Positions 3-58,816 of a stretch of 64,000 bases of DNA are shown one piece after another. Source of the DNA: an uncultured bacterium (GTDB lineage: Bacteria > Pseudomonadota > Gammaproteobacteria > Burkholderiales > Burkholderiaceae_C); assembly GCA_963701725.1 (NCBI GenBank), contig CAVPAZ010000024.1, positions 47,580 through 111,579 of the forward strand. The letters are read 5' to 3'. The notes beneath the pieces are model-generated. The model saw nothing but the letters and a program-made list of their open reading frames with translations, did not search any database and had not been told where the DNA came from. Position 1 is the first letter of the stretch. Each line of letters starts with the position of its first letter. Both the position numbers and the translations under genes were made by a program.

Positions 3-542
3 ATCCTCGATTTCAACGACCGCACGACCTGCGTGCTGTTCGGCGACGGCGCCGGCGCGGTGGTGCTCGAAGCCAGCAACGAGCCCGGCATGCTGGCCAG
101 CGAGTTGCACGCCGATGGCCGCCATGTCGGCATCCTGTGCGTGCCCGGGCACGGTGGCCGGCGGCCAGGTGTCGGCGACCCGCTGCTCAAGATGGACGGG
201 CCGGCGGTGTTCAAGCTGGCCGTCGGCGTGCTCGAAGACGTGGCGCGTGCGGTGCTGGCCAAGGCCGGCCGAAGCGAGGCCGACATCGACTGGCTGATCC
301 CGCACCAGGCCAACATCCGCATCATGCAGGGCACGGCGAAGAAGCTGAAGCTGGCGCTGGACAAGTTGATCGTCACCGTCGACGAGCACGGCAACACCTC
401 GGCCGCATCGATGCCGCTGGCGCTGGACGTGGCGGTGCGCAGCGGCCGCATCGCCGCGTGGCGACACGGTGATGCTCGAAGGCGTGGGCGGCGGCTTCAC
501 CTGGGGCGCCGTGCTGCTCGACTTCTCGACACCGCTGCTTGA
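3..542 (+). pseudogene. fabH: 3-oxoacyl-[ACP] synthase III (FabH), 3' part. The 5' end is outside the window and the frame is broken near 459.
   Basis: The frame open from nt 3 (ORF 33..542) reads [23 protein letters not shown]...[12 protein letters not shown]...[16 protein letters not shown]. The conserved tail [18 protein letters not shown] sits in another frame (ORF 469..873). First gene of a fabH-fabD-fabG-acpP-fabF block. Confidence 0.85.
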
Positions 543-562
543 AACGCCTGCAGGACTTCGCG

Positions 563-9010: not shown

Positions 9011-10819
9011 ATGGATCACATCCGCAACTTCTCCATCATTGCCCACATCGACCATGGCAAGTCGACGCTTGCCGATCGCATCATTCATCGCTGTGGCGGC
9101 TTGAGCGATCGCGAGATGGAGTCGCAAGTGCTCGACTCGATGGACATCGAGCGTGAGCGGGGTATCACGATCAAGGCACAGACCGCGGCGCTCACCTACA
9201 CCGCGCGCGACGGGCAGGTCTATCAGCTCAACCTGATCGACACCCCGGGCCACGTCGACTTCTCGTACGAAGTCAGCCGTTCGCTATCGGCCTGCGAGGG
9301 TGCCTTGCTGGTAGTCGACGCGAGCCAGGGTGTCGAGGCGCAGACGGTCGCCAACTGCTATACCGCGCTCGATCTCGGCGTCGAAGTGGTGCCCGTGCTC
9401 AACAAGATGGACCTCCCGCAGGCCGATCCCGAGAACGCCAAGGCCGAGATCGAGGACGTGATCGGCATCGATGCGGCGCACGCCATCCCCTGCAGTGCGA
9501 AGACCGGCGAAGGCATCGACGACATCCTCGAAGCGGTGATTGCTCGGATGCCGCCGCCGCGCGGCAAGCCCGATGCGCCGTTGCGCGCGATGATCGTCGA
9601 CTCCTGGTTCGACAACTACGTCGGCGTGGTGATGCTCGTACGAGTGGTCGACGGATCGCTGTCCAAGGGCGAGCGCATCCGCATGATGGCCAGCGATGCC
9701 GTCTATTCGGCCGACTCGCTCGGCGTGTTCACACCGAAGTCGGTGCCACGCGATCGCCTGAGTGCGGGCGAAGTGGGCTTCGTCATCGCCGGCATCAAGG
9801 AACTCCAGGCGGCCAAGGTCGGCGATACGATCACGCTCGAGAAGAAGCTGCCCAACAACCTCGGCGTGGCCACCGAGGCGCTGCCCGGCTTCAAGGAGAT
9901 CCAGCCGCAGGTCTTCGCCGGGCTGTACCCGACCGAGGCGAGCGAATACGACCAGCTACGCGACGCGCTGGAGAAGCTGAAGCTGAACGACTCGTCGCTG
10001 CGCTACGAGCCCGAGGTCAGCCAGGCGCTCGGCTTCGGCTTTCGCTGCGGCTTTCTCGGCCTGCTGCACATGGAGATCGTGCAGGAGCGCCTCGAGCGCG
10101 AGTTCGACCAGGACCTGATCACCACCGCACCGTCGGTGGTCTACCAGGTCGAGCTCAACAACGGCGACGTGCTGCAGGTCGAGAACCCGTCGAAGATGCC
10201 CGATCTGGGGCGCATCCGCGAGATCCGCGAGCCGATCGTCACGGTACAGCTCTACATGCCGCAGGACTGCGTCGGGCCGGTCATGACGCTCGCGAACCAG
10301 AAGCGCGGCAACCAGATCAACATGGCCTACCACGGCCGCCAAGTCATGCTGACCTACGAGATGCCGCTGGCCGAGATCGTGCTCGACTTCTTCGACAAGC
10401 TCAAGAGCGTTTCGCGCGGTTATGCCTCGATGGACTATGCGTTCAAGGAATACCGCGCGGCCGACGTCGTCAAGGTCGACATCCTGCTCAATGGCGACCG
10501 CGTCGATGCGCTGTCGATCATCGTCCACCGCAGCCAGAGCTTGTACCGCAGTCGCGCCGTGGTGGCCAAGATGCGCGAGCTGATTTCGCGCCAGCAGTAC
10601 GACGTGGCGATCCAGGCCGCGATCGGGGCCAACATCATCGCGCGTGAGACAATCAAGGCCCTGCGCAAGAACGTCATCGCCAAGTGCTACGGCGGCGATA
10701 TCACCCGCAAGCGCAAGCTGCTCGAAAAGCAGAAGGCCGGCAAGAAGCGCATGAAACAGATCGGCACCGTCGAGGTGCCGCAAGAAGCGTTCCTGGCCAT
10801 ACTTCAAGTGGACGACTGA
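9011..10819 (+). CDS. lepA: Elongation factor 4 (LepA)
   Basis: [23 protein letters not shown]...[10 protein letters not shown]. Intact ORF with ATG 9011 in the frame of ORF 8975..10819. Confidence 0.97.
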
Positions 10820-12966: not shown

Positions 12967-13905
12967 ATGACTGAACCCGTATCGCCTCTCGCCGGCGCAG
13001 CAGTGCCCGGCACCGCCCGGCACTGCGGATTGATCGCCATCGTCGGTCGGCCGAACGTCGGCAAGTCGACGCTGCTCAATGCGCTCGTCGGGCAGAAGAT
13101 CAGCATCACCTCGCGCAAGGCACAAACCACGCGCCACCGCATCACCGGGATCCGCACGCTGGCCGAGAGCCAGTTCGTGTTCGTCGACACGCCAGGCTTC
13201 CAGACGCGCCACAGCGCGGCGCTGAACCGCACGCTCAACCGCACCGTGCAGGGCGTATTGGCCGACGTCGACGTCGTGCTGTTCGTCGTCGAGGCAGGGC
13301 GCTTCGGGCCCGATGACGCCAAGGTGCTGGCGTTGATGCCAGCAGCCGGCGAGCGCGCCCGCCCGGTTGTCCTCGTCGCCAACAAGCTCGACGAGGTGCG
13401 CCGTCGAGCCGACATCGCGCCCTGGCTCAAGGGCATGCAGGAGCGCTACGCGTTCGCCGAGTTCGTGCCGCTTTCCGCGCGCAAGGATGCCGACGCGCGC
13501 CGCCTGCTCGAGATCGTCCGGCCCTACCTGCCCGAAGCGCCCTGGCTGCACGACGAAGAGGCGCTCACCGACCGCAGCGAGCGCTTCCTCGCCAGCGAGC
13601 TGATCCGCGAGAAGCTGTTCCGCCTGACCGGCGACGAGCTGCCCTACACCTCGACCGTGGTGATCGAGAAGTTCGAGGAAGAGGGTGGCCTGAGGCGCAT
13701 CGCCGCCGCCATCGTCGTCGAACGCGAGGCGCACAAGGGCATGGTCATCGGTGGCGGCGGCGAGCGGCTCAAGCGCATCGGCACCGAGGCACGCACCGAG
13801 CTCGAATCGCTGCTCGGCGCGAAGGTGTTCCTCGAGCTGTGGGTCAAGGTGCGCTCGGGCTGGGCCGACGACGAAGAGCACTTGCGCAGCTACGGCTACG
13901 AGTAG
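12967..13905 (+). CDS. era: GTPase Era
   Basis: ATG 12967 gives [23 protein letters not shown], and a KH domain at the C-terminus. Confidence 0.95.
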
Positions 13906-13917
13906 GGCCGCGCCGCC

Positions 13918-14721
13918 TTGTACCAATCGATGGTCACTCGCACGGCGCGCCCGCCCGCCACGCTGCAGTCGTTCGTGCTGCACCGCTACGACTGGAGCGA
14001 ATCGAGCCTCATCCTCGATCTCTTCACGCGCGAGCAGGGGCGGCTCGCGGTCGCCGCCAAGGGGGTGAAGCGGCCGACCTCGCAGCTGCGCCCGGTGCTG
14101 CTGCCGTTCCAGCGTCTGCACGTCACGCTGGCTCGGGGCCGCGCGAACGTCGACGATGCGGCCCCGCCCGAGGTACAGACGCTGCGCGCGGCCGAATGGG
14201 CGGGCGGTGCGGCGATGCTGACCGGCGCGGCGCTGTTCGCGGGCTTCCACTGCAACGAGTTGCTGATGAAGCTGGTCGCCCGCCACGACCCGCACCCGCG
14301 ACTCTTCGACGCCTATGCGCAGACACTCCCAGCACTGGCCGCCCGCGACGACACCCGCGTGCAGGCGGCGCTGCGCGCTTTTGAATTCGTGCTGCTGAAG
14401 GAGGTCGGCGTGCTGCCCGACCTGAGCCTCGTCACGCTCACGCAGAAGCCGGTGGGAGAGCGCGACCGGATGGCGATGCTCCCCGAAGCCGGCGTCACCG
14501 CGGCGCAGCCAGGTGACCCCGTCCTTTCGGGCAGCGTGCTGATCGGGCTGCAGGCGGCGCTAGCCCACGGCAGCATCGCCGCGCTGAGCCAAGCCTGCGC
14601 GGTGGCCCTGCCCGAACTCAAGGCCGCGCTGCGCACGCTGCTTCACTATCATCTCGGAACGCCGGTGATGCGCACGCGGCAGGTGATGATCGACCTCCAG
14701 ACGCTGGCAACCTCTGCATGA
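13918..14721 (+). CDS. recO: DNA repair protein RecO
   Basis: SFVLHRYDWSESSLILDLFTREQGRLAVAAKGVKR. TTG 13918 or ATG 13930 could be the start. Lies in the conserved era-recO-pdxJ order. Confidence 0.88.
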   Translation: MYQSMVTRTARPPATLQSFVLHRYDWSESSLILDLFTREQGRLAVAAKGVKRPTSQLRPVLLPFQRLHVTLARGRANVDDAAPPEVQTLRAAEWAGGAAMLTGAALFAGFHCNELLMKLVARHDPHPRLFDAYAQTLPALAARDDTRVQAALRAFEFVLLKEVGVLPDLSLVTLTQKPVGERDRMAMLPEAGVTAAQPGDPVLSGSVLIGLQAALAHGSIAALSQACAVALPELKAALRTLLHYHLGTPVMRTRQVMIDLQTLATSA

Positions 14722-15530
14722 ACCCCTTGATCACGTCGGGCCTCGACGCGAAGCGCAGCGCCACGGCGCTGTCGGTGAACCTGAACCTGGTGGCGATGAT
14801 GCGCAACCGCCGCCCGCTCGACCTTCCGAGCATCACTCGCGCGGCAACCATCGTGCTCGAGGCCGGGGCGGCCGGTATCACAGTGCATCCGCGGCCCGAC
14901 GGGCGCCACATTCGGGCTGGTGACGTGCGGGACCTGGCCACTCTGCTGAAGGCTTGGCCGCAGGCCGAGTTCAACATCGAGGGCAATCCCTTTCACAACC
15001 TGATGGACTTCGTGCGCGAGCTGCGCCCGCAGCAGTGCACCTTCGTCCCCGATGCCCAGGGGCAGCCCACGTCGGATCACGGCTGGGACCTGACGCAGGA
15101 CGCCGACCGGCTGGCGCCGCTGATCGCCGAGGCCCATGCGCTCGGCGTTCGCGTCAGCCTCTTCATGGACGCCGAGCCGGCGGCGATGGCCGCTGCGCGA
15201 ACGCCTGGCGCCGATCGCGTCGAGCTCTACACCGAGCCGTACGCGGCGGCACATGGCACGCCGCGGCAGGCGGCGGAGTTGGCGCGCTTTGCCGGCGCCG
15301 CGCGTGCCGCCCAGCAGGCCGGACTTGGCGTCAACGCCGGGCACGACCTCAACCGCGACAACCTTGCCGACTTCCTCGCCGCCGTGCCAGGCGTGCTCGA
15401 GGTATCGATCGGGCACGCGCTGATCTCCGACGCGCTCGAACTCGGATACAGCCAGACCGTTCGCGAGTACCTGCGCTGCATTGCCAACGCTGCCGAGCTC
15501 GGGCGCCAGGCAGGCGGGCTGGCGCGATGA
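14718..15530 (+). CDS. pdxJ: Pyridoxine 5'-phosphate synthase
   Basis: [15 protein letters not shown]...[12 protein letters not shown]...EFNIEGNP...NAGHDLN. ATGA overlap with recO. Confidence 0.93.
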
Positions 15531-15928
15531 TCTTCGGCATCGGTACCGACATCTGCGACATCCGGCGCATCGAGGCCGCGCTCGCACGACGTGGCGACCG
15601 CTTCGCCGAGAAGGTGCTCGGCGCGCGCGAACTCGTGGTGTACCGCGCCCGCCGCGAAAGGGCCGCCGCACGCGGCGTGCGCTATCTGGCCACGCGCTTC
15701 TCTGCCAAGGAGGCGTTCTCCAAGGCGATCGGCCTAGGTCTGCGCCTGCCGATGACCTGGCGTGCCTGCGAGATCGTCAACGCGGCGAGCGGCAAGCCAG
15801 CCGTCGAGCTCAGTGGCGCACTCGCTGCATGGTTCAGCGAGCGCGGGCTCAGCGCGCAGGTCAGCGTGAGCGATGAATCAGACTACGCGGCTGCCTTCGT
15901 GGTCGTCGAGACCAGGGACCGATCATGA
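15527..15928 (+). CDS. acpS: Holo-ACP synthase
   Basis: [16 protein letters not shown]...[15 protein letters not shown] overlaps on both sides. Confidence 0.93.
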
Positions 15929-17046
15929 TCCAGGCCAACGCACGCCAAGCTTCGCTCGCCACAGCCCCACTGCACGCACCGGTCGTGATCGACGTCGCCG
16001 GCCTCGGGTTGAACGCCAACGACCGGCGCCGCCTGCAGCATCCGCTGACCGGCGGTCTGATCCTGTTCGCGCGCAACTGGGAGAGTCGGCGCCAGCTGAC
16101 CGAGCTCGCCGCGGAGGTCAAGTCGCTCCGACCCGACCTGCTCATCTGCGTCGACCAAGAAGGCGGCCGTGTACAACGCTTTCGCAGCGATGGCTTCACC
16201 CACCTGCCGCCGATGCGCGCCCTCGGCGAGCAGTGGATGAACGACGGGCATCGCGGTGCCGGCAGCGGTGCGATGGATGCGACCGACGCCGCCACAGCCG
16301 CGGGCTACGTGCTCGGCGCAGAACTGCGTGCCTGTGGCGTCGACCTGAGTTTCACGCCGGTGCTCGACCTCGACCACGGCCCGAGCGGCGTGATCGGCGA
16401 TCGCGCCTTCCATCGCGACCCGCGCGTCACGACCCTGCTCGCCAAGAGCCTGATGCATGGCCTGGCGCTGGCGGGCATGGCCAACTGCGGCAAGCACTTC
16501 CCCGGCCACGGCTACGTGCGTGGCGATTCGCACCATGAGGTGCCAGTGGACCGGCGCAGCCTGAAGGCGATCCTCGCCGACGATGCGCGGCCCTACGAGT
16601 GGCTCAGCACCTCGCTAGCGAGCGTGATGCCGGCGCACGTGATCTACCCCAGGGTCGATCCGCATCCGGCCGGCTTTTCGCCGCGCTGGCTGAAGGAGAT
16701 CCTGCGCCTCCAACTCGGCTTCACCGGTGCCGTGTTCAGCGACGACCTGAGCATGGAGGGTGCACGCCGCATCGACGGGGCTGCGGTGAGCTACGCCGAA
16801 GCAGCGGCCACAGCGCTCGACGCCGGCTGCGACATGGTGCTGCTGTGCAACCAGTCGATGGGCGACGGGCGGGCCGTCGACGAGTTGCTGGACGGCCTGG
16901 TCGATGCCTGCTCACGCGGTCTGTGGCAGCCGGACCCCGACAGCGAGGCGCGTCGCCGCGCCCTGCTTCCCCAGGCAGCCCCGTTGAGCTGGGACGAACT
17001 GATGCACCACCCCGCGTACCAGCACGCGCTCGAGCGCCTGCCGTAG
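15925..17046 (+). CDS. nagZ: Beta-N-acetylhexosaminidase NagZ
   Basis: [10 protein letters not shown]...[14 protein letters not shown]...KHFPGHG...[11 protein letters not shown]. Confidence 0.9.
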
Positions 17047-23302: not shown

Positions 23303-24306
23303 ACCCGCCCGACAGCCTGCAAGACGATCTTCGACAACCCCGCCCAGCGGGCCCTGCGGCCGGAAGCGCCGCGGTGCCGGCGGGCGGCGGCTGGAACGCG
23401 GTGGCCGAGCAGTTCGCTCGCGATTACCTGAAGGACCGCCGCAGCGAGCGCCGCTGGCGGGTGTTCTTCCGCCTGGCCTGGCTCATGCTCTTCGTGCTGC
23501 TGGCCTGGGCCCTGTACGCACAGCGCTACTACGCCGCCGTGCCGACGGGTCCGCACACGGCGTTGATCGAAGTGCGCGGCGAGATCGACGCCGGCTCCGA
23601 AGCGAGCGCCGAGAACCTGGTGGCGGCGCTGAAGAACGCCTTCGAGGACGACGGTGCGAAGGCCGTCGTGCTGCGCATCAACTCGCCCGGCGGCAGCCCG
23701 GTGCAGGCCGGCATCGTCAACGACGAGATCCGCCGCCTGAAGGCGCTGCACGGCAAGAAGGTCTACGCGGTCGTCGAAGATACCTGCGCTTCGGGCGCGT
23801 ACTACATTGCCGTGGCAGCCGACGAGATCTATGCCGACAAGGCGTCGATCGTCGGCTCGATCGGCGTGCTGATGGACGGCTTCGGTTTCGTCGGCACGAT
23901 GGAGAAGTTCGGTGTCGAGCGCCGCCTGCTCACCGCGGGCGACAACAAGGGCATGCTCGACCCGTTCTCGCCGCAGTCCGAGAAGCAGCGCGCCTTCGCG
24001 CAGGCGATGATCGACCAGGTTCACCAGCAGTTCATCGCGGTCGTCAAGCAAGGCCGTGGCAAGCGCCTGAAGGAGACGCCGGAGACCTTCTCCGGCCTGT
24101 TCTGGAACGGCCAGCAGGCGGTGCAGAACGGCCTCGTCGACCATCTCGGCAACCTCGACTTCGTGGCGCGCGAAGTCGTCAAGGCGGAGACCGTCGTCGA
24201 CTACACCCCGCATGAGAACCTTGCCGAGCGGCTGGCCAGGAGGTTCGGGGCGTCGATCGGCGCTGGAGCGGTCGGGGCGCTGCGTGCCTTGAGCCCGATG
24301 CGCTGA
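23299..24306 (+). CDS. sppA: Signal peptide peptidase SppA (36K type)
   Basis: VVLRINSPGGSPVQAG...CASGAYYIAVAADEIYA...IVGSIGV. ATGA overlap with the Rieske gene. Confidence 0.88.
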   Translation: MNPPDSLQDDLRQPRPAGPAAGSAAVPAGGGWNAVAEQFARDYLKDRRSERRWRVFFRLAWLMLFVLLAWALYAQRYYAAVPTGPHTALIEVRGEIDAGSEASAENLVAALKNAFEDDGAKAVVLRINSPGGSPVQAGIVNDEIRRLKALHGKKVYAVVEDTCASGAYYIAVAADEIYADKASIVGSIGVLMDGFGFVGTMEKFGVERRLLTAGDNKGMLDPFSPQSEKQRAFAQAMIDQVHQQFIAVVKQGRGKRLKETPETFSGLFWNGQQAVQNGLVDHLGNLDFVAREVVKAETVVDYTPHENLAERLARRFGASIGAGAVGALRALSPMR

Positions 24307-33664: not shown

Positions 33665-35419
33665 TCAAAAGAGGAAATACCGCTGTGCCATCGGCAGCAC
33701 CGCCGCCGGCTCGCAGGTCAACAGCACGCCGTCGGCGCGCACTTCGTAGGTCTGGGCGTCGATCTCCATCGCCGGCAGGTAGTCGTTGAGCAACATGTCG
33801 CGCTTGGTGACGTGGCGGCAGTGCTTCACTGCGGAAATACGCTTGTGCAGGCCCAGCGTCTCGCCCAGATCGCCCGCCAGCGCGGCCTGGCTCATGAAGG
33901 TGATCGAGCCACGCGCCAGCGCGCCGCCGAAGCTGCCGAACATCGGCCGGTAGTGCACCGGCTGCGGCGTCGGGATGCTGGCGTTCGGGTCGCCCATCGC
34001 GGCCATCGCGATGAAGCCGCCTTTCAGGATGAGTGAAGGCTTGACGCCGAAGAAGGCCGGCTTCCAAAGCACCAGGTCGGCCCACTTGCCGACCTCGATG
34101 CTGCCCACCTCATGCGCGATGCCGTTGGCGATGGCGGGGTTGATCGTGTACTTGGCGACGTAGCGTTTGGCGCGCGAATTGTCGTTGCGCGAAGAATCGG
34201 CCGGCAGCCCGCCGGGCCGCGTGTCGCCTTGCAGGCTGCCGCGCTGGACCTTCATCTTGTGCGCCGTCTGCCAGCAGCGCAGCACGACCTCGCCGACGCG
34301 GCCCATCGCCTGGCTGTCGCTCGAGAACATGCTGATCGCGCCCAGGTCGTGAAGCACGTCCTCGGCGGCGATGGTCTCGCGCCGGATGCGGCTTTCGGCG
34401 AACGCGAGGTCTTCGGCGATGTTCGCATCGAGGTGGTGGCAGACCATCAGCATGTCGAGGTGCTCGTCGACGGTGTTGACGGTGTAGGGCATCGTCGGAT
34501 TCGTCGACGAGGGCAGGAAGTTCGCCTCGCCGACGACGCGCAGGATGTCGGGCGCGTGGCCGCCGCCGGCGCCCTCGGTGTGGAAGGCGCACAGCGTGCG
34601 GCCCTTCGTCGCGCGAACAGTGTCCTCGACGAAGCCCGATTCGTTCAGCGTGTCGCTGTGGATCGAGACCTGGGTGTCGGTCTCTTCAGCCACCGCCAGG
34701 CAGGCGTCGATGGCCGAGGGCGTCGTGCCCCAGTCCTCGTGCAGCTTGAGGCCGATCGCGCCGGCCTCGACCTGCTGGCGCAGCGCCTCGGGCCGGCTCG
34801 AGTTGCCCTTGCCGAGGAAACCGAGGTTCATCGGAAAGGCTTCGGCTGCCTGCAGCATGCGCGCCAGGTTCTCGGGCCCCGGTGTGCAGGTGGTGGCAAA
34901 CGTTCCGGTCGCCGGACCGGTGCCGCCGCCGAGCATCGTCGTCACGCCGCTCGCTAGCGCCTCCTCGATCAGCTGCGGGCAGATGAAGTGAATGTGGCAG
35001 TCGATGCCGCCGGCGGTGACGATCATGCCTTCGGCAGCGATCACTTCGGTGCCCGGGCCGATCACGATGTCCACGCCCGGTTGCACGTCGGGGTTGCCGG
35101 CCTTGCCGATCGCGGCGATGCGCTGCCCGCGCAGGCCGATGTCGGCCTTGACGATGCCCCAGTGGTCGAGGATCAGCGCGTTGGTGATCACGCAATCCAC
35201 CGCCTCGCCGTGGCCCGGCCCGTTGACGCGCTGGCTCTGGCCCATGCCGTCGCGGATGGTCTTGCCGCCGCCGAACTTCACCTCTTCGCCATAGCCTCCG
35301 GCGCGCAGCGTGTAGTCCTGTTCGACCTCGATGATCAGTTCGGTGTCGGCCAGGCGCACCCGGTCACCGACCGTGGGGCCGTACATCTCGGCGTACGCGC
35401 GGCGGTGGATCATCGGCAT
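33665..35419 (-). CDS. ureC: Urease alpha subunit
   Basis: [18 protein letters not shown]..., [39 protein letters not shown]. The start was taken at MPMIHRR (35419) within ORF 33665..35494. Confidence 0.96.
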
Positions 35420-35490
35420 CACAGCGCTCCCTGGACCAGGCCGCGAAAGCCGACCACACGCCGCTCGCCGGCGCTCTTGCGGACTTCCGT
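35419..35490 (-). pseudogene. ureB: Urease beta subunit, 3'-terminal remnant only (last ~17-23 codons)
   Basis: The frame ending in the TGA that shares its A with the ureC ATG reads (TEVRKS)[17 protein letters not shown]. It is preceded by TGATGA (35491-35496) and no further UreB/UreA sequence. Confidence 0.7.
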
Positions 35491-35618
35491 TCATCAGCTT
35501 GGAGGTAGTGTTCGACGGCGAGCCGGATTACCTGCGACACCGGCAGTTTCTTGGCGACGGCCTTCGCCTTCACGTCTTCCAGGGTCTTGTCGTTGAGATA
35601 GAGACTCATTTGCGGCAT
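35490..35618 (-). CDS. Ribbon-helix-helix (CopG/antitoxin-like) protein. Its own stop is missing because the ORF runs across the junction.
   Basis: GAGGAGG lies 8 nt before ATG 35618. [43 protein letters not shown] shows the beta-strand plus two-helix RHH pattern. As given, the ORF continues to 35364 through ureB'/ureC sequence. Confidence 0.6.
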
Positions 35619-35751
35619 GAAACTCGCCTCCTCGTCTGATATACCATCACCATGGTAGAGAGCGTGTGCCGGAAAGTAAAGGGGATGTGCGGTAGCTGGC
35701 TTCCCCGGAACTTGTCGCGATGAAACGCCGTGAGCTGCGCCGGCGCGTGGA

Positions 35752-36214
35752 TCAGGCCTGGCGCGCCGGCGCGACCGGCACCTTGACGACGATCTTCCGG
35801 ACGGTGGTCGCGGCGCCGCGGCTGAGCTTGGGCATGTGGCCGTCCTGGGGGAAGAAGACGGCGAACGACCCGGGCCGCAGCGTGACGAGATCCACTTCGC
35901 CCTCGAGCGTCTCGAAGTCGGCGGCTTCGTCCCAGGCGGTCGGCCGTGCACGCGGCGCGGCTGCAGACGCCGATCTGCTCGATGCCGCTGGCGACGACCT
36001 GGACGTCGATGTGCCGGCGGTGGCACTCGATGAAGCCTTCGCCCGGCGCCAGCGTCCGGTAGCTGCTGACGAGCGCGAAGCACCCGTCGCCGAGGTCGTG
36101 GCGGCCGTCGGCGAGCGCCGCGAGGTCCGTCGCGTCGAGGAAGTCCGCCACGCGCGCGAAGAGCGGGTGCGCGCCGAGGTAGTCGCGGAAGCGGTCCAGC
36201 GTGTCGAGGATCAT
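35752..36214 (-). pseudogene. YhcH/YjgK/YiaL-family (DUF386) protein, with one frame break near 35,945
   Basis: MILDTLDRFRDYLGAHPLFARVADFL...GFIECHRRHIDVQVVASGIEQIG is in ORF 35606..36727. It is followed in another frame by AWDEAADFETLEGEVDLVTLRPGSFAVFFPQDGHMPKL...* (stop 35752-35754). Confidence 0.7.
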
Positions 36215-36233
36215 GGTGCGCCCGGACGCAGGC

Positions 36234-36886
36234 TCATGCGCGGGCCACGGCCCGCTCCGCGGCCTCGCAGAGCGCCTTGGACGGGTGGGCGCCGACGAGC
36301 AGCTCGCTGCCGCCGAAGACGAACGCCGGGACGGCCGTGATCTTGCGGCGGTGCGCTTCCGCGGTCCCCTCGCGCAGCGCGGCCTCGCCGCTCGCCGGCC
36401 GCGAGGGCGGCGTCCAGGCGCGCGGCGTCGAGCCCGACGTCGGCGAAGATCCGGCGCAGCACCGCGGGGTCGCCGATGTCGCGCAGTTCGCCGAAGTTCG
36501 CGCGGAAGAGCGCGTGGTGCAGCGCCTCGAAGCGCTCCGGGCTTTCGGCCTGGACGATCGCGCTCGCCGCGAGCGCGCGGTGCGTGTTGGCGAGCAGCGA
36601 CTCGGGGGTGCGCGTGCGCGAACTCGATCCCCTCGGCGGCGGCCTGCTGGCGCAGCCGCGCCATCGCGGCCGCGAGGTCGTCGGGGTCGTAGCCGAGCGC
36701 CGAGAGCGGCATCCCCGCCGGCGGCACCTCGGGGTGGATCTCGAAGGGGCGCCACGCGATCGCGAGCGCGATCCGGCCGGCGAGCGCGGCGCGGGCCTTC
36801 TCGAGGCGGACCGCCCCGATGGAGCACCACGGTCAGGTGTAGTCGCTGAAGACTTCGACGCGCACGACGGGCGGTTCGTGGCTCAT
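36234..36886 (-). pseudogene. DsbA/FrnE-like thiol-disulfide oxidoreductase. It has an in-frame TGA at the first Cys of CxxC (candidate Sec) and two frame breaks (~36,610 and ~36,395).
   Basis: GGAGGAGGAG lies 6 nt before ATG 36886. The frame reads MSHEPPVVRVEVFSDYT-TGA-PWCSIGAVRLEKARAAL...WRPFEIHPEVP..., the same phase as ORF 35606..36727. Later parts (ESPERFEALHHALF..., ITAVPAFVFGG...) are in ORFs 36211..36462 and 36234..36830. Confidence 0.7.
36801..36819 (-). promoter_or_regulatory. SECIS-like stem-loop 13 nt downstream of the in-frame TGA
   Basis: The mRNA reads UGA-CCGUGGUGCUCCA-UCGGGGCG-GUC-CGCCUCGA. The stem is 8 bp with one G-U pair, and the apical-loop G lies ~22 nt after the UGA. 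Confidence 0.3.
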
Positions 36887-36907
36887 GGGGTGCTCCTCCT
36901 CCCCGCG

Positions 36908-36936
36908 ATTCTGTGCCGTCCGGACAGGGGAGTCAA
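36908..36936 (-). promoter_or_regulatory. Sigma-70-type promoter in front of the DsbA-like gene
   Basis: The minus strand reads TTGACT (36936-36931), a 17-nt spacer, then CAGAAT (36913-36908), ~20 nt upstream of the SD. Confidence 0.45.
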
Positions 36937-36998
36937 ACCCGCGCCGCGGTTTCCTCGTCCCCCTTCGATGGCGCCGCCCGCGCCCGTTCGTGTTCCCA

Positions 36999-37032
36999 CT
37001 CCCCCATGGTGGCCGGGCGCACCATGGGGGAG
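36999..37032 (-). terminator. Perfect 13-bp inverted repeat hairpin after the truncated upstream ORF (no U-tract)
   Basis: ctcccccatggtg (36999-37011), an 8-nt loop, then caccatgggggag (37020-37032). On the minus strand it begins 34 nt downstream of the stop at 37066. Confidence 0.4.
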
Positions 37033-37065
37033 CATCGTCCTTCGCACCCGCCCGCGAAGCCGCGA

Positions 37066-37359
37066 TCAGATCGTCGTGTAGCCGCGGCCGCCGCGGCGCC
37101 GGCGGATCGTCCCGCCGTCGTCGTCGGCCGGCCGGCTGTCCTGCCGCGCCAGCCGGAAGGCGCACAGGTGGAGCAGCACCCCGTCGGCCGCCAGCGCGCC
37201 GCCGGAGATCGACCGGGAGCGAAAGCGCAGGTCCTCGCCGAGGCCCGCGGCCGGGAACGAGTCCACCTGCGCCTCGGCGGCCTGGCGCAGCAGCGAGGCG
37301 ACCTTGGCGCGCGTGGCGGGGGCCGAAGGCGGGACGCGCAGCTCCTCGATCGCGTCGAT
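37066..37359 (-). pseudogene. 5'-truncated ORF of unknown function (C-terminal 97 codons only)
   Basis: The frame is open right up to the 16S junction: IDAIEELRVPPSAPATRAKVASLLRQAAEAQVDSFPAAGLGEDLRFRSRSISGGALAADGVLLHLCAFRLARQD...*. I do not recognise the family. Confidence 0.4.
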
Positions 37360-38125
<766 letters not shown>

Positions 38126-38304
38126 AGTTGGCTGCCCTCCCAGACCCTTGCGGACCAGGTCGAGCAATTACCTCAACGCGAGAGCCATTCAATTGGCTCC
38201 ATATTGCGTTGTCGGTTGTCTTGTGTAGTGGACGCCGTCCAGCTCCTTGCGGAGCCGCGCGCGTCCGGCTGACACTCGACGGGTTGTGCGTGCGTTCTAT
38301 CTAG

Positions 38305-38316
38305 TTTTCAAAGAAC
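38305..38316 (-). promoter_or_regulatory. boxA-like antitermination element in the rRNA leader
   Basis: The minus strand reads GTTCTTTGAAAA, matching 9 of 12 positions of the E. coli boxA core GCTCTTTAACAA. It lies ~40 nt downstream of the P2 -10. Confidence 0.35.
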
Positions 38317-38360
38317 CGGCGCCTCTGCGGACGCCGCTCCCGCTCTTCAGCGGGCTTTCA

Positions 38361-38389
38361 ATCCTATCGTCGACTCTTGCCCGTGTCAA
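38361..38389 (-). promoter_or_regulatory. rRNA promoter P2
   Basis: The minus strand reads TTGACA (38389-38384), a 17-nt spacer, then TAGGAT (38366-38361). An A/T-rich UP-like stretch, gaaatttcgaaggcgatgaaaaaagagg, lies just upstream. Confidence 0.6.
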
Positions 38390-38568
38390 CCTCTTTTTTC
38401 ATCGCCTTCGAAATTTCTTTCTTTCGGCGACGCCTTGCCGACCCCTGGGAAGTTCCCGTGTGTCTCGGCTAGGGTTGTTGACGCGACTGGGAGCGTCAGA
38501 TGACCTCGACCCGAAGGCCTCAGTCGGCGCCGGTCTGTGGAAGACCCGGTGACCAGCGCGGATTTGTA

Positions 38569-38597
38569 GTTATACGCGATGCCGCCGACCCTGTCAA
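38569..38597 (-). promoter_or_regulatory. rRNA promoter P1
   Basis: The minus strand reads TTGACA (38597-38592), a 17-nt spacer, then TATAAC (38574-38569). Confidence 0.6.
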
Positions 38598-38821
38598 CCA
38601 CCTATTTCGCCGGCACCGTTCATTTCCCGCCCCTCCACCGGTGCGAACGTGCGCGCGCCGCCAAAGGGATCGGGATCATTGATCGATCCGCCGCGGAGAT
38701 CAAGCCCCAACTTCAGCCCCGACGGCGAACCGTGCGATCACCGAGCCGCCCGGCCTCCGCCAGGCCTTCCCGTGTGTCAGCCACAGACGCCTGACGTCCC
38801 GTTGGGCCGGCGTTGCTGGGC

Positions 38822-40108
38822 CTATCCGACCAACCGCACCACGTGCTGCTGCCTCGCGCCCCGCCGGACGACGAACACGCGGCCGCCTATGGCGACCGCC
38901 TGCGTCAACCGCTCGCGCTCGTTCGTCACGCGGCGGTTGTTCACGGACACGCCGCCCCCCTTCACGAGCCGCATGGCCTCGCTCTTCGACGGCGCCAGCG
39001 CGGTCTTCACGAGGACGTCCGCGATGCCGACGCCCTCGCCCTGGAACGCGTCCGCCCCCCATTCGGTCGACGGGACGTCCTCGAAGACGTCGAGGACTTC
39101 GTCGGCCGTCAACTCGGAGATCCCTTCGCCGAACAGCAGTTGTGATGCGCGCTCGGCCCGCTGCACGGCGCCCTCGCCGTGCACCAGCGCCGTGACGGCC
39201 CGCGCGAGCACGCGCTGCACCTCGCGCCGTTCGGGCGCGCGCGCCATCTCCTCGCCGAGCGCCTCGACTTCCTGCTGCGTGAAGAACGTGAAGTACTTCA
39301 GGTACGTCTGCACGTCGCGGTCGTCCGTGTTCAGCCAGAACTGGTAGAAGCGGAAGGGCGACGTCCGGCCCGCATCCAGCCATACCGTGCCCGCTTCGGT
39401 CTTGCCGAACTTCACGCCAGCGGCGGTGGTGACCAGCGGCATCACGAGCCCGTGCGCCCGGGCGCCGCCGCGCAGTTTCCGGATCAGGTCGCATCCGGCG
39501 GTGATGTTGCCCCACTGGTCACTGCCACCCAGTTGCAGCGTGCAGCCGTAGCGTTCGTTCAGGACCAGGAAATCGTAGGCTTGCAGCAGCAGGTAGCTGA
39601 ACTCCGTGTAGGAGATGCCGTCTTCGGCCTCGAGACGCCGCCGGACGGCCTCCTTTCCAAGCATGTAGTTCACGGTGAAGTGCTTGCCGACGTCACGGAG
39701 GAACGACATCAGGTCGACCGTCGCGAGCCAGTCGGCGTTGTCGACGATCTGTGCCGCGTTGGAGGCGCGTTCGAAGTCGAGGAACCGCGACAACTGCTCC
39801 CTGATGCCGACGAGGTTCGCGGCCACCTGCTCGCGGGTCTGCAGTTGGCGCTCCGGCGTCTTGCCGCTGGGGTCGCCTATCAGCCCCGTGCCGCCGCCGA
39901 CGATCGCGATGGGCCGGTGTCCGGCGCGCTGCATCCGCGCGAGCGCCATGATCGGGAGCAGCGACCCCACGTGCAGGCTCGACGCCGTCGGGTCGAAGCC
40001 GATGTAGCAGGTCAGCGACTGCGTCGCCAGCGCGTCGGCCAGCCCCTCCGTCGCCTCGTAGACCATCCCGCGCCATTTGAACTCGTCGAACACACTTGTC
40101 ACGGTCAC
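38822..40108 (-). CDS. tyrS: Tyrosine--tRNA ligase
   Basis: Intact 428-aa ORF with FDPTASSLHVGSLLP (HIGH region), KFGKTEAG (KMSKS region) and a C-terminal S4-like domain. Confidence 0.95.
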   Translation of the reverse strand: MTVTSVFDEFKWRGMVYEATEGLADALATQSLTCYIGFDPTASSLHVGSLLPIMALARMQRAGHRPIAIVGGGTGLIGDPSGKTPERQLQTREQVAANLVGIREQLSRFLDFERASNAAQIVDNADWLATVDLMSFLRDVGKHFTVNYMLGKEAVRRRLEAEDGISYTEFSYLLLQAYDFLVLNERYGCTLQLGGSDQWGNITAGCDLIRKLRGGARAHGLVMPLVTTAAGVKFGKTEAGTVWLDAGRTSPFRFYQFWLNTDDRDVQTYLKYFTFFTQQEVEALGEEMARAPERREVQRVLARAVTALVHGEGAVQRAERASQLLFGEGISELTADEVLDVFEDVPSTEWGADAFQGEGVGIADVLVKTALAPSKSEAMRLVKGGGVSVNNRRVTNERERLTQAVAIGGRVFVVRRGARQQHVVRLVG

Positions 40109-41295: not shown

Positions 41296-41935
41296 GGGCG
41301 TCTATGAACGCCGCGACGAACCGGCGTCCCTCGACCACGCCATCCCGGCTGAAGAACCAGGGCGATGGCGCGGGGATACATCCGGTGCTCCTCGACGAGG
41401 ATGCGCGCCGCGAGCAGCGTCCTCGGTGTCGTCGTCGCGCACGGGCACGGCGGCCTGAGCCACGATGGGACCCGGCGTCGAGATCGGCGTTGACGAAATG
41501 GCACCGTGGCGCCGCTGACCTTGACGCCGTGCAGCAGGGCCTGCCGCTGCGCGTGCAGCCCGGGGAACGCGGGCAGCAGCGACGGGTGGATGTTGAGGAT
41601 GGCGTCTGGGGAACGCGTCGATGAAGGCTGCGCCGAGCAGCCGCATGAACCCCGCGAGGCAGACGAGGTCCACCGCGTGGGCCCGCAGGCGCGCCACGAG
41701 GGCGCGCGTCGAAGGCCGCGCGGGTGGGGAACTCGCGATGGTCGAGCGACGAGCGTCGGAACGCCGGCACGCCGTGCGCGCTCGAGGCCGCGGCGCGTCG
41801 GCGAGGTTGGAGATCACGAGCCGCGATGGTGGCGTCGAGTTCGCCCGCGGCGATGGCGTCGATGATCGCCTGCAGGTTGCTGCCCCGTCCGGAGATGAGG
41901 ACGCCGAGGCGCCGCGCGGTATCCCCGCGAGACAC
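41246..41935 (-). pseudogene. purN: Phosphoribosylglycinamide formyltransferase, with multiple frame breaks
   Basis: RLGVLISGRGSNLQAIIDAI (ORF 41246..41935), VDLVCLAGFMRLL and GPIVAQAAVPVRDDDTED (ORF 41302..41955), and ILVEEHRMYPRAIAL (ORF 41217..41504). The 3' end is approximate. Confidence 0.75.
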
Positions 41936-41944
41936 CGCGCCGAC

Positions 41945-42998
41945 TCAGACGACATAGCGCAGCCTCGCCATCGCCCGGCCGACGACCTCGCCGATCACGA
42001 GACCTCGCGTTCCCCGGCGGCCGCGCAGAGCCGCTCGCACGGGCCCGCGACATCGTCCGCGGCCACCGCGACGATCATGCCGATACCCATGTTGAAGGTG
42101 CGGCAGCATGTCGTCGCGGGGCACCTCCCCGCCGTCGTTGCAGGAACGCGAACAAGCGGCGGTGACGTCCACGAGGCGGTGTCGATGCACCGCCGACCTG
42201 CCGGCCGGCAGGATGCGCGGCAGGTTCTCCGTGATGCCGCCGCCCGTGATGTGCGCGAGTCCCTTGACGAGCGGTACCCCGCCTCGCATCGACGAGGCGG
42301 CCAGAGCACGGGCAGGTAGGAGCGGTGCGTCGCGAGCAGGGCCTCGCCGACGGTGCCCCCAGCGCGGGCACGTCGGTGTCGAGCTGCCACCGAGCTTGCT
42401 CGAAGACGAATGCGGCGGGCGAGCGAGTAGCCGTTGGTGTGCAGCCCCGAGGACGGCAGCCCGATCAGCACGTCGCCCGGCGCATGGCCGCGCCCGTCGA
42501 TCACGCGCGCCCGCGTCCACGCTGCCCGACGATGAACCCGGCGAGGTCGTACTCGCCGTCGGCATAGAAGCCTGGCATCTCGGCCGTCTCGCCGCCGAGC
42601 AGCGCGCACCCGTTCGCGCGGCACGCCCCGGGCGATGCCCTCGACGACCGCGACGGCGACGTCGGGCGACAGCCGGCCCGTGGCGAGGTAGTCGAGGAAG
42701 AACAGCGGGCGGGCGCCCTGCACGAGGATGTCGTTGACGCAGTGGTTGACGAGGTCCTCGCCGACCGTGTCGTGCCGGTTGGCGAGGAACGCGACCTTCA
42801 GCTTGGTGCCGACGCCGTCGGCGCTGGCGACCAGCACGGGCCCGTCCGCGGCGTGAGGGCTCGAGCGCGAACAGCCCGCCGAAGGCTGCCGAGCTCCGAG
42901 AGCACGCCCGGCGTGAACGTGCCTCGCGCGAGCCCCTTGATGCGGCGGACCACCTCGTGGCCCGCGTCGATGTCCACGCCGCTCGAACTGTAGTCCAT
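41945..42998 (-). pseudogene. purM: Phosphoribosylformylglycinamidine cyclo-ligase (AIR synthetase), with multiple frame breaks
   Basis: [21 protein letters not shown] (ORF 42798..42998). [52 protein letters not shown] and [11 protein letters not shown] are in ORF 41995..43830. Confidence 0.8.
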
Positions 42999-43028
42999 GC
43001 CTCAGGCTCGGCTGCCACGCTGCGCCGC

Positions 43029-44566
43029 TCAGGCAGGTGCCTTCGGCTCGCATCGGGCGCCCCGAGCCGACCGCGGGCGCCGTCGGGCTACGGTGCCGAG
43101 CCGCGTCCGGCACTGCGTCGGCTGCGCCCGTCGCTGCCTGGCCGTTCGGTTGCTGGAGCTTGAGCGCGAGCTGCAGGTACTCTCGCGATCGCGCGGGAAG
43201 GCGACGGGATAGTGTGCCGGTGTAGCACGACGTGCAGTAGGCACTGCCGCGAGGTCGCCGACGCCCGCCAGCAGGCCCTCGAGGCTCAGGTACGCGAGGG
43301 TGTCGGCGCCGAGGTACCTGCGCACCTCGTCGAGCGAGTGGGTCGCGGCGATCAGTTCGCGTGCGGCTGCGGCGTGTCGACGCCGTAGAAGCACGGGGAG
43401 ATGGTCGGCGGGCAACTGATGCGCACGTGGACTTCGCGCGCGCCGGCGGCGCGCACCATCTTGACGATCTTGCGGCTCGTCGTGCCGCGGACGATCGAGT
43501 CGTCGATGAGCACGACCCGCTGGCCCTCCAGGATGCTCGCGGACGGGGTTGAGCTTCACCCGGACGCCGAAGTGGCGGATCGACTGCTGCGGCTCGATGA
43601 ACGTGCGCCCGACGTAGTGGTTGCGGATGAGCCCCATGCGGAAGGGCATGCCGGCCTCCTCGGCGTAGCCCGAGCGCCGCGCACACGCCGGAGTCGGGCA
43701 CGGGCACGACGACGTCGGCGGCCACGCCGATCTCGCGCGCGAGCTGCCGGCCGAAGGCCGTCCGGGCCTCGTTGACGCTGCGTCCGAACACGAGGCTGTC
43801 GGGCCGCGAGAAGTACACGTGCTCGAACACGCAGTGCGCCAGCGGCTGCGGCGCGAACGGCGTGATAGCTGCGCAGCCCGTGCTCGGAGATCACGAGGAT
43901 CTCGCCCGGCTCGACGTCGCGCTCGTACGTGCGCGCCGATGAGGTCCATGGCGCACGTCTCCGAGCAGACGATGTAGCGCGTCGCCGAGGCGGCCCGAGC
44001 GCGAGCGGGCGGAACCCGTGCGGGTCGCGCGCCGCGATCAGGCGGTCGCGCGTCAGCAGCAGGAGCGAGTAGGCGCCGGTCACCTGCGCCAGCGACTCGA
44101 CGACCGCCTGCTCGGCCGGTCGGGCCTGCGACCGGGCGTACAGGTGCAGCACCACCTCGGTGTCGCTCGTGGTCTGGAAGATGGAGCCCTGCGCGCACGA
44201 GGTCGTGGCGCAGCTCGCCCGCGTTGACGAGGTTGCCGTTGTGGCAGACGGCGATCTGCCCGTGCGCGCAGTCGATGAGCAAGCGGCTGCGCGTTCTGCA
44301 GCTCGCTGTCGCCGGCGGTGGAGTAGCGCACGTGGCCGATGGCCGCGTGGCCCGGCAGCGCGGCCGAGCGTCGTCTCGTCGAAGACGTCGGCGACGTAGC
44401 CCATCGCGCGATGCACGCGGAGCCGCGCGCCGTCCGCGGTGGCGATGCCGGCGCTCTCCTGCCCGCGGTGCTGCAGCGCGTAGAGCCCGAGGTAGGCGAG
44501 GTTGGCCGCCTCGGGGTGCCCGAAGATGCCGAAGACGCCGCACTCCTCTTGTAACTTGTCGAACAT
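43029..44566 (-). pseudogene. purF: Amidophosphoribosyltransferase, with many frame breaks and an uncertain 3' end
   Basis: MFDKLQEECGVFGIFGH...ALQHRGQESAGIA and IFQTTSDTEVVLHL are in ORF 43556..44674. Later parts are in ORFs 43029..44807 and 41995..43830. Confidence 0.75.
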
Positions 44567-44861
44567 TGATGCTCCCCGGGTCCCGTGCCGCCGCGCGTCG
44601 CCTTCCGCATGAAGAAGATCGCCAGATCGCGATGTCGACGACGCCCGACGCGCGACGAGGGCGCCGGCGAGCATGGTGCCTGCGCGCGTCTCGTCGGCAG
44701 AGAGCGTCCCTGCTCCCGATCAGAGGCCGACGAACAGGAACATCGTGGCCGCCGAGATCATCAGCGACCGGCCGATGACCGCGAAGTTGCTCTGCGGGCG
44801 GCGGCATGCGTGCTCTCCGAGTTCGTTCGAACCGCGACGGCCTCGTGCGGGCGTCGGGCCG

Positions 44862-46195
44862 CTACCCGGCGACGACCGCGCTCCGCGCTGCGCCTGGAAC
44901 ACGCGGTCGAAGATGGCGTCGACGTGGCGGAGCTGTACGTGGAGGTCGAAGCAGCGCCCGATCTCCGCCGGCGACAGCACCGCCGTGACGTCCGGGTCCT
45001 GCAGCAGCAGCGTCCTGGAAGTCCACGCCGCTTGGTGGGACGCGCATGGCGTTGCGCTGCACCCACGCGTAGGCCTGCTCTCGCGAGACCCCGCGCCGCG
45101 CCAGCTCGAGCAGCACGGTCCCCGAGAACACCACGCCGCGCGACCGATCGAGGTTCTCCCGCATCCGCTCGGGGTGGACCACCATGCCCTCGACGATGCG
45201 CGTGAAACGCCGCAGCATGTGATCCAGCGCGAGGAAGCTGTCGGGCAGGATCACCCGCTCGACCGACGAGTGCGAGATGTCGCGCTCGTGCCACAGCGCG
45301 ACATTCTCGATCGCGGCCATGGCGTTGGCCGCGGACGAGCCGCGCCAGCCCGCACACCTGCTCGCAACCGATCGGGGTTGCGCTTGTGCGGCATCGCCGA
45401 GGAGCCCTTCTGGCCCTTGCCGAACGGCTCCTCGACCTCGCCGATCTCGGTCTTCTGCAGGCCCCGGACCTCGAGCGCGAACTTCTCGAGCGAGGCGGCC
45501 ATGATGGCGAGCGCGCACATGCAGCTCGGCGTGGCGGTCGCGCTGGATGACCTGCGACGACACCGGGGCCGGCGCCAGGCCCAGCGCTCGCAGACCGCGC
45601 GCCTCGATGGCCGGGTCGAGGTGGGCGAAGGTGCCGACGGCGCCCGAGAACTTGCCCACGCGCACGGCGCTCGCGCGCGCGCGCCGGACGCGCTCGACGG
45701 CGCGGCCGACCTCGGCGTACCACAGCGCGAGCTTCAGCCCGAAGGTCATCGGCTCGGCGTGCACGCCGTGCGTGCGGCCGATCATCGGCGTGCGCCGGTG
45801 CTCGATCGCGCGGCGCCTCGATGGCCTGGCGCCAGCGCCGCGAGCTGTCTCGAGCACCAGGTCGCACGCCTCGACCATCTGCAGCGCGAGCGCCGTGTCG
45901 ACGACGTCCGAGGAGGTGAGCCCGAAGTGCAGCCACCGCGCCGACGGGCCCGACGTGCTCGGCGACGGCGGTCGTGAACGCGATCAGATCGTGCTGGGTG
46001 GTCTGCTCGATCTCGTCGATGCGGGCGATGTCGAAGCCGCCGTTCTCGCGGATGTCGCGGGCCGCGGCCGGCGGGAACGATGCCCGCCTCGGCCATGGCC
46101 TCGGCCGCGGCCACCTCGACGCGCAACCAGGCCTCGAACCTGCGCTCCTCGCTCCAGATGCGCCCCATCTCGGGCTGCGTGTAGCGGCGAATCAT
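44862..46195 (-). pseudogene. purB: Adenylosuccinate lyase, with many frame breaks and an approximate 3' end
   Basis: [27 protein letters not shown] (ORF 45782..46246), [16 protein letters not shown] and [15 protein letters not shown] (ORF 44862..45878), and LRHVDAIFDRVF (ORF 44720..44980). Confidence 0.75.
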
Positions 46196-57541: not shown

Positions 57542-58816
57542 CTACGCCCCTGCCCGCAGCGCGCGCTGCCCGATGTCCCGGCGCATGTGCATGCCCTCGA
57601 AGCGGATCGATCCGGCCGCGTCGTACGCCCGCGCGATGGCGGTCCCGAAATCCTCGCCTCGCGCGACCACGGTGAGCACGCGGCCACCGTCGGTCACCAG
57701 ACGCCCATCGCGTTCGGCCGTCCCCGCGTGGAACACGATCACGTCTGCGGCGTCTGCCGCAGGCAGTCCCTCGATGGCCTTGCCCTTCTGGAAGGGACCC
57801 GGGTAGCCACCGGAGGCGAGCACCACACCGACGTGCGGTTGCCCGAAGACCAGGGGCTGGTCGGCTGAGAGACGACCGGCGGCGGCCGCGGCGAGCCAGG
57901 CGGCCAGCGAGCCCTGCAGGCCCGGGAGGATCACCTGGGCCTCCGGGTCACCCAGCCGCACATTGAACTCGACGACTTTCGGGCCCTGCGGGGTGAACAT
58001 GAGGCCCACGTACAGGAACCCGCAGAACGGCATCCCCTCTGACGCCATGCCGCGCAGCACGGGCGTGACGATCGTGTCGAACACCAGCCGCTCGACCTCG
58101 GCCGTCAGGCGCGGACTGGGGGCGAAGGCGCCCATGCCCCCGGTGTTGGGGCCCTCGTCGTTGTCGCCAACGCGCTTGTGGTCCTGGGCCGACGCGAGGG
58201 TGACGCCTCGGGTGCCGTCGCAGAGCACGAAGAACGAGGCCTCTTCCCCCGTCATGCACTCCTCGATGACGAGGGCGTCACCGGCGTCACCGAACTGTCG
58301 GCCGAGCATGGCGCCGTCAATGGCGGCGTGGGCGGTCTCGAGGTCGGGCGCAATCACGACGCCCTTCCCGGCGGCGAGGCCGTCTGCCTTGACGACGACG
58401 GGCAGCCCGAGCTCCGCGACGGCGCGCCGGGCGTCCTCCGGCGACGAACAGGCCCGATGCCGGGCCGTCGGGACGCCGTGCCTGGCCATGAACGCCTTCG
58501 CGAACACCTTGCTGGTTTCCAGTTGCGACGCCGCACGCGACGGGCCGAGCAGTGCCAGCCCTTCTGTGGCGAACCGGTCCGCGACGCCGAGGGCCAACGG
58601 CAGCTCCGGCCCGACGACCGTCAGGTCGACGCGTTCCGCACGGGCGAGGGCGACCAGGCCGTCGATGTCGGCGGGGCGCACGTCCGCGCACCGGGCCAGC
58701 CCAGCGATGCCCGGGTTTCCGGGCGCGCACACCACGCCCGTGACGCCCGCGTCTCGCGACAGGCGCCACACGAGCGCGTGCTCGCGCCCGCCAGATCCGA
58801 CGACGAGGAGTTTCAT
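57542..58816 (-). CDS. purD: Phosphoribosylamine--glycine ligase
   Basis: Intact 424-aa ORF: MKLLVVGSGGREHALVWRL...VVKADGLAAGKGV...GPNTGGMGAF...EFNVRLGDPE. Confidence 0.95.
   Translation of the reverse strand: MKLLVVGSGGREHALVWRLSRDAGVTGVVCAPGNPGIAGLARCADVRPADIDGLVALARAERVDLTVVGPELPLALGVADRFATEGLALLGPSRAASQLETSKVFAKAFMARHGVPTARHRACSSPEDARRAVAELGLPVVVKADGLAAGKGVVIAPDLETAHAAIDGAMLGRQFGDAGDALVIEECMTGEEASFFVLCDGTRGVTLASAQDHKRVGDNDEGPNTGGMGAFAPSPRLTAEVERLVFDTIVTPVLRGMASEGMPFCGFLYVGLMFTPQGPKVVEFNVRLGDPEAQVILPGLQGSLAAWLAAAAAGRLSADQPLVFGQPHVGVVLASGGYPGPFQKGKAIEGLPAADAADVIVFHAGTAERDGRLVTDGGRVLTVVARGEDFGTAIARAYDAAGSIRFEGMHMRRDIGQRALRAGA

Follow-up and report, generated by a model that had tools for sequence, protein, structure and literature searches.

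The minus strand of the 64-kb stretch of DNA analysed here (hereinafter, the window) harbors a gene of the DsbA/FrnE type whose frame is interrupted by a TGA codon exactly where the first cysteine of the active-site motif is expected. The question raised by this locus is whether the TGA is a genuine selenocysteine (Sec) codon, as proposed by a first-pass annotation made from the sequence alone, or the outcome of a sequence error or of the decay of the gene. The data reported below indicate that it is, very probably, an evolutionarily conserved Sec codon in a DsbA/FrnE-type redox protein, an assignment based on sequence comparison.

The gene and its in-frame TGA codon

The features of the locus are listed in Table 1; the positions given by the first-pass annotation for the Shine-Dalgarno sequence, the ATG, the TGA, the hairpin and the open reading frames (ORFs) were all correct on re-reading of the sequence. 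The gene starts with the ATG at 36886-36884 and ends with a TGA terminator at 36236-36234 (both on the minus strand), embedding about 217 codons when the Sec codon is counted and two 1-nt insertions are corrected. Its frame reads MSHEPPVVRVEVFSDYT, then the internal TGA, then PWCSIGAVRLEKARAALAGR; the ORF 36833..37447, which ends in ...VFSDYT*, is in the same phase as the ORF 35606..36727. The homologous codons following the TGA had been estimated at about 90, a figure to be lowered to about 72-76 before the first frameshift.

Table 1. Features of the DsbA/FrnE-like gene (positions refer to the 64-kb window)
Feature	Position	Strand	Basis
Shine-Dalgarno sequence GGGGAGGAGGAG	36904-36893	minus	Read from sequence; 6 nt 5' of ATG; leader aligns with L071
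DsbA/FrnE-like (PF01323) gene	36234..36886	minus	Three-frame translations, Pfam, structure match and L071
In-frame TGA, predicted selenocysteine codon, residue 18 (U of U-P-W-C)	36835-36833	minus	Alignment with homologues
CCG TGG TGC (P-W-C), rest of the UxxC motif including the resolving Cys	36824..36832	minus	Invariant in all Sec and Cys homologues
SECIS-like hairpin	36819-36801	minus	MFE folds, RNAalifold consensus, comparative data
5' arm UCGGGGCG	36819-36812	minus	Sequence and MFE fold
Apical loop GUC	36811-36809	minus	Sequence and MFE fold
3' arm CGCCUCGA	36808-36801	minus	Sequence and MFE fold
First frameshift, 1-nt insertion vs L071, within GCGCACGCGCACCCCCGAG, exact base ambiguous	36604..36620	minus	blastn gap
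Second frameshift, 1-nt insertion vs L071, extra G in GGCGA[G]CGGCGAG (~36,391)	36389..36393	minus	blastn gap

By sequence, the stitched protein is a member of the DSBA-domain family: it matches the profile PF01323 with E=1.8e-35 and 122.9 bits (cut-off 25.6), over profile positions 2-186 of 191. Among solved structures, the best match is Deinococcus radiodurans FrnE (5cnw, E=3.4e-25), residues 7-210 being aligned to 11-215. In this alignment the SDIACPWCYIG of FrnE corresponds to SDYT-U-PWCSIG of the window, which places the TGA at the first, nucleophilic Cys of CPWC. The two proteins share the active-site context SD..CPWC.IG and differ in the residue at this position, Sec here and Cys in FrnE; moreover, the FrnE chain (260 aa) continues for ~45 residues past the alignment, a tail that the ~217-aa window protein does not possess.

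Conservation of the TGA codon and of the downstream hairpin

A TGA at the same codon, with frames open through it, was found in place of TGC in 13 independent contigs from other samples, of which 11 are GC-rich and Rokubacteria-like and two are distant and low in GC. The set of TGA-bearing sequences is composed of L001, L025-L031, L071-L074, L063 and L067, with L072 and L073 representing one distinct gene on two contigs. L001, retrieved by a scan covering one genome per species, is a contig of a Candidatus Rokuibacteriota MAG; its gene is intact (216 sense codons) and reads ...VFSDYT-TGA-PWCLIGAVRLEKA..., with the same hairpin as the window. A metagenome scan disclosed seven further intact TGA-bearing genes (L025-L031) and the two distant low-GC ones (L063 and L067, 34-37% identity), and the contigs encoding three "truncated" database proteins turned out to carry three distinct TGA genes on four contigs (L071, L072/L073 and L074).

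All 11 GC-rich TGA genes are intact, with 214-222 codons, 62-92% pairwise amino-acid identity and an ATG or GTG start located 17 codons upstream of the TGA. Throughout this clade the protein sequence flanking the codon is conserved upstream as well as downstream (VRVEVFSDYT-U-PWC.IGAVRLEKA), and in the TGA-bearing genes examined no start codon exists between the TGA and the conserved PWC. This lack of an intervening start, together with the conservation of the peptide encoded upstream, means that the TGA has to be decoded by the ribosome. The terminator is itself a TGA in the window gene and in 9/11 of the GC-rich relatives, so that the recoding of UGA has to be position-specific and the code is not reassigned; a genome-wide reassignment of UGA, which was also considered, is ruled out on the same ground.

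At the corresponding codon, 50 distinct homologues, belonging mostly to Gemmatimonadota and Longimicrobiales, have TGC or TGT. A single member of the Sec clade carries TGC, i.e., L069 (407-575; Ga0316622_100068137), with 76% identity over the first 56 residues; its hairpin is degraded (-6.5 kcal/mol), and a 1-nt insertion is present, beyond which homology is lost. This sequence may represent a decaying Cys revertant or a paralogue. The genes adjacent to the DsbA-like gene differ in every relative examined, and the gene context therefore gives no clue to function.

The hairpin located downstream of the TGA had been regarded as SECIS-like in the first-pass annotation. [quoted passage not shown] The hairpin is contained in the MFE fold of the window sequence, a fold in which GUGGUGC is also paired with a downstream GCGCCGC. 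In the single sequence, whose context has 70% GC, the hairpin is not significant (z = -1.5 to -1.8, with 13-14/200 shuffles folding as well), and its significance is thus derived from the comparative data.

The 8-bp helix is recovered by RNAalifold from the TGA-bearing sequences. In a separate count over 12 distinct sequences, 96.9% of the cells are paired, a value reached by 0/500 shuffles and to which no register-shifted control comes close. The fixed 19-nt hairpin has an energy of -10 to -11.6 kcal/mol in 12/12 distinct GC-rich Sec sequences, against 0 to -8.1 kcal/mol for the same segment in the 50 Cys homologues. In L063 and L067 the hairpin is found at the same position, with a 3-nt loop whose first base is G, and three pairs are changed on both sides (GC>AU, GC>CG and GC>AU); these compensatory pairs all come from this one lineage and effectively represent one evolutionary comparison, and the MFE structure of these two sequences is a different one. 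On the whole, the hairpin accompanies the TGA in all the TGA homologues and is weaker or absent in those with Cys, in agreement with its assignment as a putative SECIS.

The coding sequence overlapping the hairpin appears constrained at the nucleotide level too. Among the codons for invariant amino acids, those invariant also in their nucleotides are 4/7 in the hairpin vs 12/81 elsewhere (Fisher p=0.019), and the few changes in the hairpin region concern the edge of the loop (L028) or fall just outside the stem (L071). Near-invariant synonymous sites also occur upstream of the UGA, at codons 10, 12 and 15-17 (window 36,859-36,836; L001, L025-L031 and L071-L074). This upstream constraint exceeds what the hairpin alone explains, and it could reflect a recoding context, a longer structure or just the small size of the sample.

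None of the SECIS families of Rfam gave a match at the gathering threshold, nor at E<=1 over 36,000-39,500. Given the poor coverage of bacterial SECIS elements by models of this kind, this result lowers the case for an fdhF-type element and not that for a hairpin working as a SECIS. The two elements share some traits: as in the Escherichia coli fdhF SECIS, the hairpin lies within the coding sequence just 3' of the UGA, and a G-U opens the small apical loop; the loop and its closing pair read GGUC, as in the apical loop of fdhF. Unlike in the fdhF SECIS, the stem in the window is shorter (8 bp) and fully paired, without the bulged U, and the loop has 3 nt.

Frameshifts and surroundings of the gene

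The two frameshifts that the first-pass annotation had placed further down the gene do exist in the sequence, and both correspond to 1-nt insertions with respect to L071. The latter shares 91% DNA identity with the window over 722 bp, 5' leader included, and is intact at both sites. In the translations, the first frame change falls between ...EFA and PESLLANTH and the second one between ...LAAGE and GEAALREG. Other genes of the window are affected to a different extent: the adjacent YhcH/DUF386 gene requires one frame correction for a full match to its Pfam profile, and purF and purM (~42-44.7 kb) can each be read only by combining several frames; no frameshift is present at 29.1-35.4 kb, where ureC, phaC and the gene for a P-type ATPase of 901 aa are intact. 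A census of frameshifts from GC3 phase was too noisy, and these disruption calls rest on individual genes. The indel density is strongly uneven across the window, which suggests that read coverage or polishing varied widely from one segment to another. The minus-strand ORF run at 41,900-45,900 reads as purB, purF, purM and purN, with a Pfam basis for the AIRS domains of purM only.

From 25.9 kb to 35.4 kb the window is colinear, at ~90% identity, with the contig L075, in which the genes are arranged in the order ureA-ureB-ureC-phaC-ATPase. The colinearity stops just upstream of the ureC start, and at ~35,490 the window switches to unrelated sequence. What precedes ureC is no more than the final ~17 codons of ureB (~35,418-35,500, minus strand; L075 9,850-10,020 for comparison), and the place of ureA and of the rest of ureB is taken by a small ORF whose beginning resembles a ribbon-helix-helix protein (no Pfam match), by YhcH and by the DsbA-like gene. 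On the other side, at ~37,358, a C-terminal ARPP-1-domain fragment (profile positions 228-297 of 297; ORF 37,362-37,066) is fused to 16S. Only the 5' half (~750-770 nt) of the 16S rRNA gene is present (37,291-38,125, minus strand), and the joint (~37,355-37,360), where a 5-nt GACGC repeat is found, looks like an assembly chimera. Upstream of the 16S gene is tyrS (38,822-40,108), as is commonly the case; the 16S fragment, judged by eye only, is not betaproteobacterial in appearance.

The selenoprotein gene is thus embedded in a 1.9-kb block (35,490-37,358) having a high indel rate, next to clean neighbouring sequence. The nearest named relatives of UreC (33,665-35,419) are Ideonella and Rubrivivax (Burkholderiales), with 85-88% identity, and the closest matches of the DsbA-like block are Rokuibacteriota-labelled and unlabelled sediment contigs. 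The contig may therefore mix taxa, and the rest of the window may derive from an organism other than that of the DsbA-like gene. The most economical reading of the 1.9-kb block is that of a chimeric, locally unpolished stretch of metagenomic assembly.

Two further observations concern the urease region. In L075 (ENA sample ERZ25039527, which is also the source of the Sec-gene contig L074), ureB (9,599-9,924) and the P-type ATPase gene (13,599-16,310) are each split into two calls; this assembly contains indel errors too, at other places than the window. An Rfam match to 5_ureB_sRNA (34,960-35,258, plus strand, 90.6 bits) lies antisense to ureC, over the 5' part of its coding region; it has no bearing on the DsbA-like gene and most likely reflects the conservation of the urease coding sequence and not a small RNA gene.

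As for the two frameshifts of the window copy, the closest relatives are intact, other genes of the window are frameshifted as well, and the block is delimited by two mid-gene junctions; for these reasons they most likely represent spurious single-base insertions that were left uncorrected, the 1.9-kb stretch being poorly polished and probably chimeric. A different explanation is that the lineage possesses a genuine selenoprotein and the window copy is a decaying pseudogene, whose frameshifts are real and which yields no full-length protein. The presence of two frame-disrupting 1-nt insertions within 650 bp, the disruption of the neighbouring YhcH and the existence in nature of decayed copies, such as L069, are in keeping with this explanation. 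However, apart from the insertions the gene is 91% identical to an intact relative, without further stops or deletions; housekeeping genes as purF and purM are also split over frames, pointing to sequence error; and the location between two mid-gene junctions is typical of a low-coverage chimera. The decay of the window copy is therefore considered unlikely, and a technical origin of its frameshifts is preferred.

Proposed decoding of the UGA codon and membership in a known family

The best overall explanation, to which we attach high confidence, is that the gene encodes a Sec-containing UxxC member of the DsbA-like family, the frameshifts of the window being technical. The product would be a cytoplasmic-type FrnE/DsbA-like thiol-disulfide oxidoreductase using Sec as the nucleophilic first residue of the CPWC motif (U-P-W-C). 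The internal UGA would be recoded co-translationally, with the hairpin 13 nt downstream acting as a bacterial SECIS and recruiting SelB with Sec-tRNA(Sec) to the UGA in the A-site; the TGA at the 3' end of the gene would still act as a terminator. The UxxC DsbA/FrnE selenoprotein with a downstream SECIS envisaged by the first-pass annotation is supported, at the level of sequence, by the conserved TGA, by the association of the hairpin with it and by the family match.

In line with a caveat of the first-pass annotation, none of selA, selB, selD and tRNA-Sec was found in the 64-kb window, nor in the fetched flanks of the relatives; ARAGORN detected no tRNA in the window and no tRNA-Sec in 15 related loci. 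The ORF 41995-43830, considered as a possible SelD on account of its AIRS and AIRS_C domains, was rejected, its sequence and its neighbours identifying it as PurM in the frameshifted purB/purF/purN run. A six-frame scan of the window for in-frame TGA codons in high-GC3 open sequence returned two of them (24304-24306 and 57866-57868), with no redox motif or convincing coding context.

Two other explanations of the TGA have to be weighed. According to one of them, the gene would be an ordinary Cys-type DsbA/FrnE gene in which a TGC>TGA change was introduced by base calling or assembly, or arose as a private nonsense mutation; one base change is enough to produce the picture, and the window contains many sequence errors. 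This possibility, kept as a caveat by the first-pass annotation, is excluded by the presence of TGA at the exact codon in 13 independent assemblies, among which are the nearest relative, 91% identical, and a named Rokuibacteriota MAG; the hairpin, moreover, co-occurs with the TGA, and pairwise identities of 62-92% exclude a common erroneous template. Its probability is accordingly regarded as negligible. The other explanation accepts the conservation of the UGA and assumes that one of the standard amino acids Cys, Trp and Gly is inserted at it, through near-cognate decoding or a suppressor tRNA, with no Sec involved. The UGA-C context is leaky, and the Sec machinery was not observed directly in the 64-kb window and in the flanks of the relatives. 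Nevertheless, the site is that of a redox-active Cys, where the Sec/Cys exchange is established for the DsbA-like family, the conserved hairpin and the constrained synonymous sites fit a SECIS-dependent recoding, and these very genes still use TGA for termination; a readthrough by standard amino acids is thus very improbable, and the insertion of Sec remains our preferred reading.

A DsbA-like selenoprotein is not a novelty in itself, as the first-pass annotation might have implied. Zhang et al. 2005 (PMC1088965) described the "DsbA-like protein" (COG2761, UxxC) among the selenoprotein families of the Sargasso Sea, and it was later found in Anaeromyxobacter, Desulfovibrio and Desulfotomaculum (PMC1794560); the family was counted in 41 organisms (PMC5029168), and it is listed as "DsbA-like protein form 1" (PF01323, UxxC) in a 2026 review (PMC13188914), a 2022 review likewise giving it as PF01323, UxxC. 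The window gene, judged from its sequence, is a further member of this published family (UxxC, PF01323/COG2761), with which it shares the Pfam domain, Sec as the first residue of xPWC/UxxC, the existence of Cys homologues and a small G-loop hairpin after the UGA. The examples named in the publications, compared by description, come from marine metagenomes, Deltaproteobacteria (Anaeromyxobacter and Desulfovibrio) and Desulfotomaculum; the carrier here is a GC-rich, Rokubacteria-like clade from sediment or wetland metagenomes, in which the Sec form is apparently fixed.

Rokubacteria are placed by GTDB in Methylomirabilota. No literature specific to selenocysteine in Rokubacteria was found, only statements at the level of the phylum Methylomirabilota, and the BSepDB text does not include DsbA. 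Within that phylum, 63 selenoprotein genes have been predicted in a single MAG (PMC13188914), and Sec-type hydrogenases are reported in Methylomirabilota by another 2026 paper.

The clade is also of interest for its annotation. In the protein database every close homologue (62-90% identity) is called as an N-terminally truncated protein of 148-194 aa, and the full-length proteins with CPWC all have 59% identity or less. This pattern is the usual signature of mis-annotated selenoproteins, which are typically annotated as truncated (PMC1088965). The public gene calls for the clade (P0001-P0023 and others) start past the TGA, either at Met58 or at a GTG, TTG or ATG codon, and in L071 (gene 36-767, minus strand) a spurious antisense ORF of 243 aa is called over the true N-terminus. 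A truncated homologue, MDP1603744.1, is located on a 1.2-kb contig labelled as a "Legionella sp." MAG, probably a binning artefact. Since every close public homologue is called truncated and an antisense ORF is called in one contig, the annotation of this GC-rich clade is systematically wrong, the "DsbA family protein" calls being deprived of their active site.

Taking these data together, it can be proposed, with roughly even chances of being right in all its parts, that Sec has become fixed at the nucleophilic position throughout a FrnE-like subfamily of a Rokubacteria/Methylomirabilota-like lineage, the sole Cys-codon member seen being a decaying copy; that the codons of helix alpha-1 contain a SECIS of unusually small size, with a stem of 8 bp and a GUC loop of 3 nt, which has constrained both the synonymous sites and the protein (IGAVRLE vs VGWARLE of the Cys homologues); and that all the members are mis-annotated as truncated in public databases. 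The understanding of Sec decoding itself is left unchanged by this locus, and a tool-free reading of raw sequence was able to pick out what is, in all likelihood, a genuine selenocysteine codon. For the family, the finding would add a GC-rich, Rokubacteria-like clade to a known group of selenoproteins, whose paired Sec and Cys sets, with and without the hairpin, provide a small and clean example of SECIS evolution inside a coding region.
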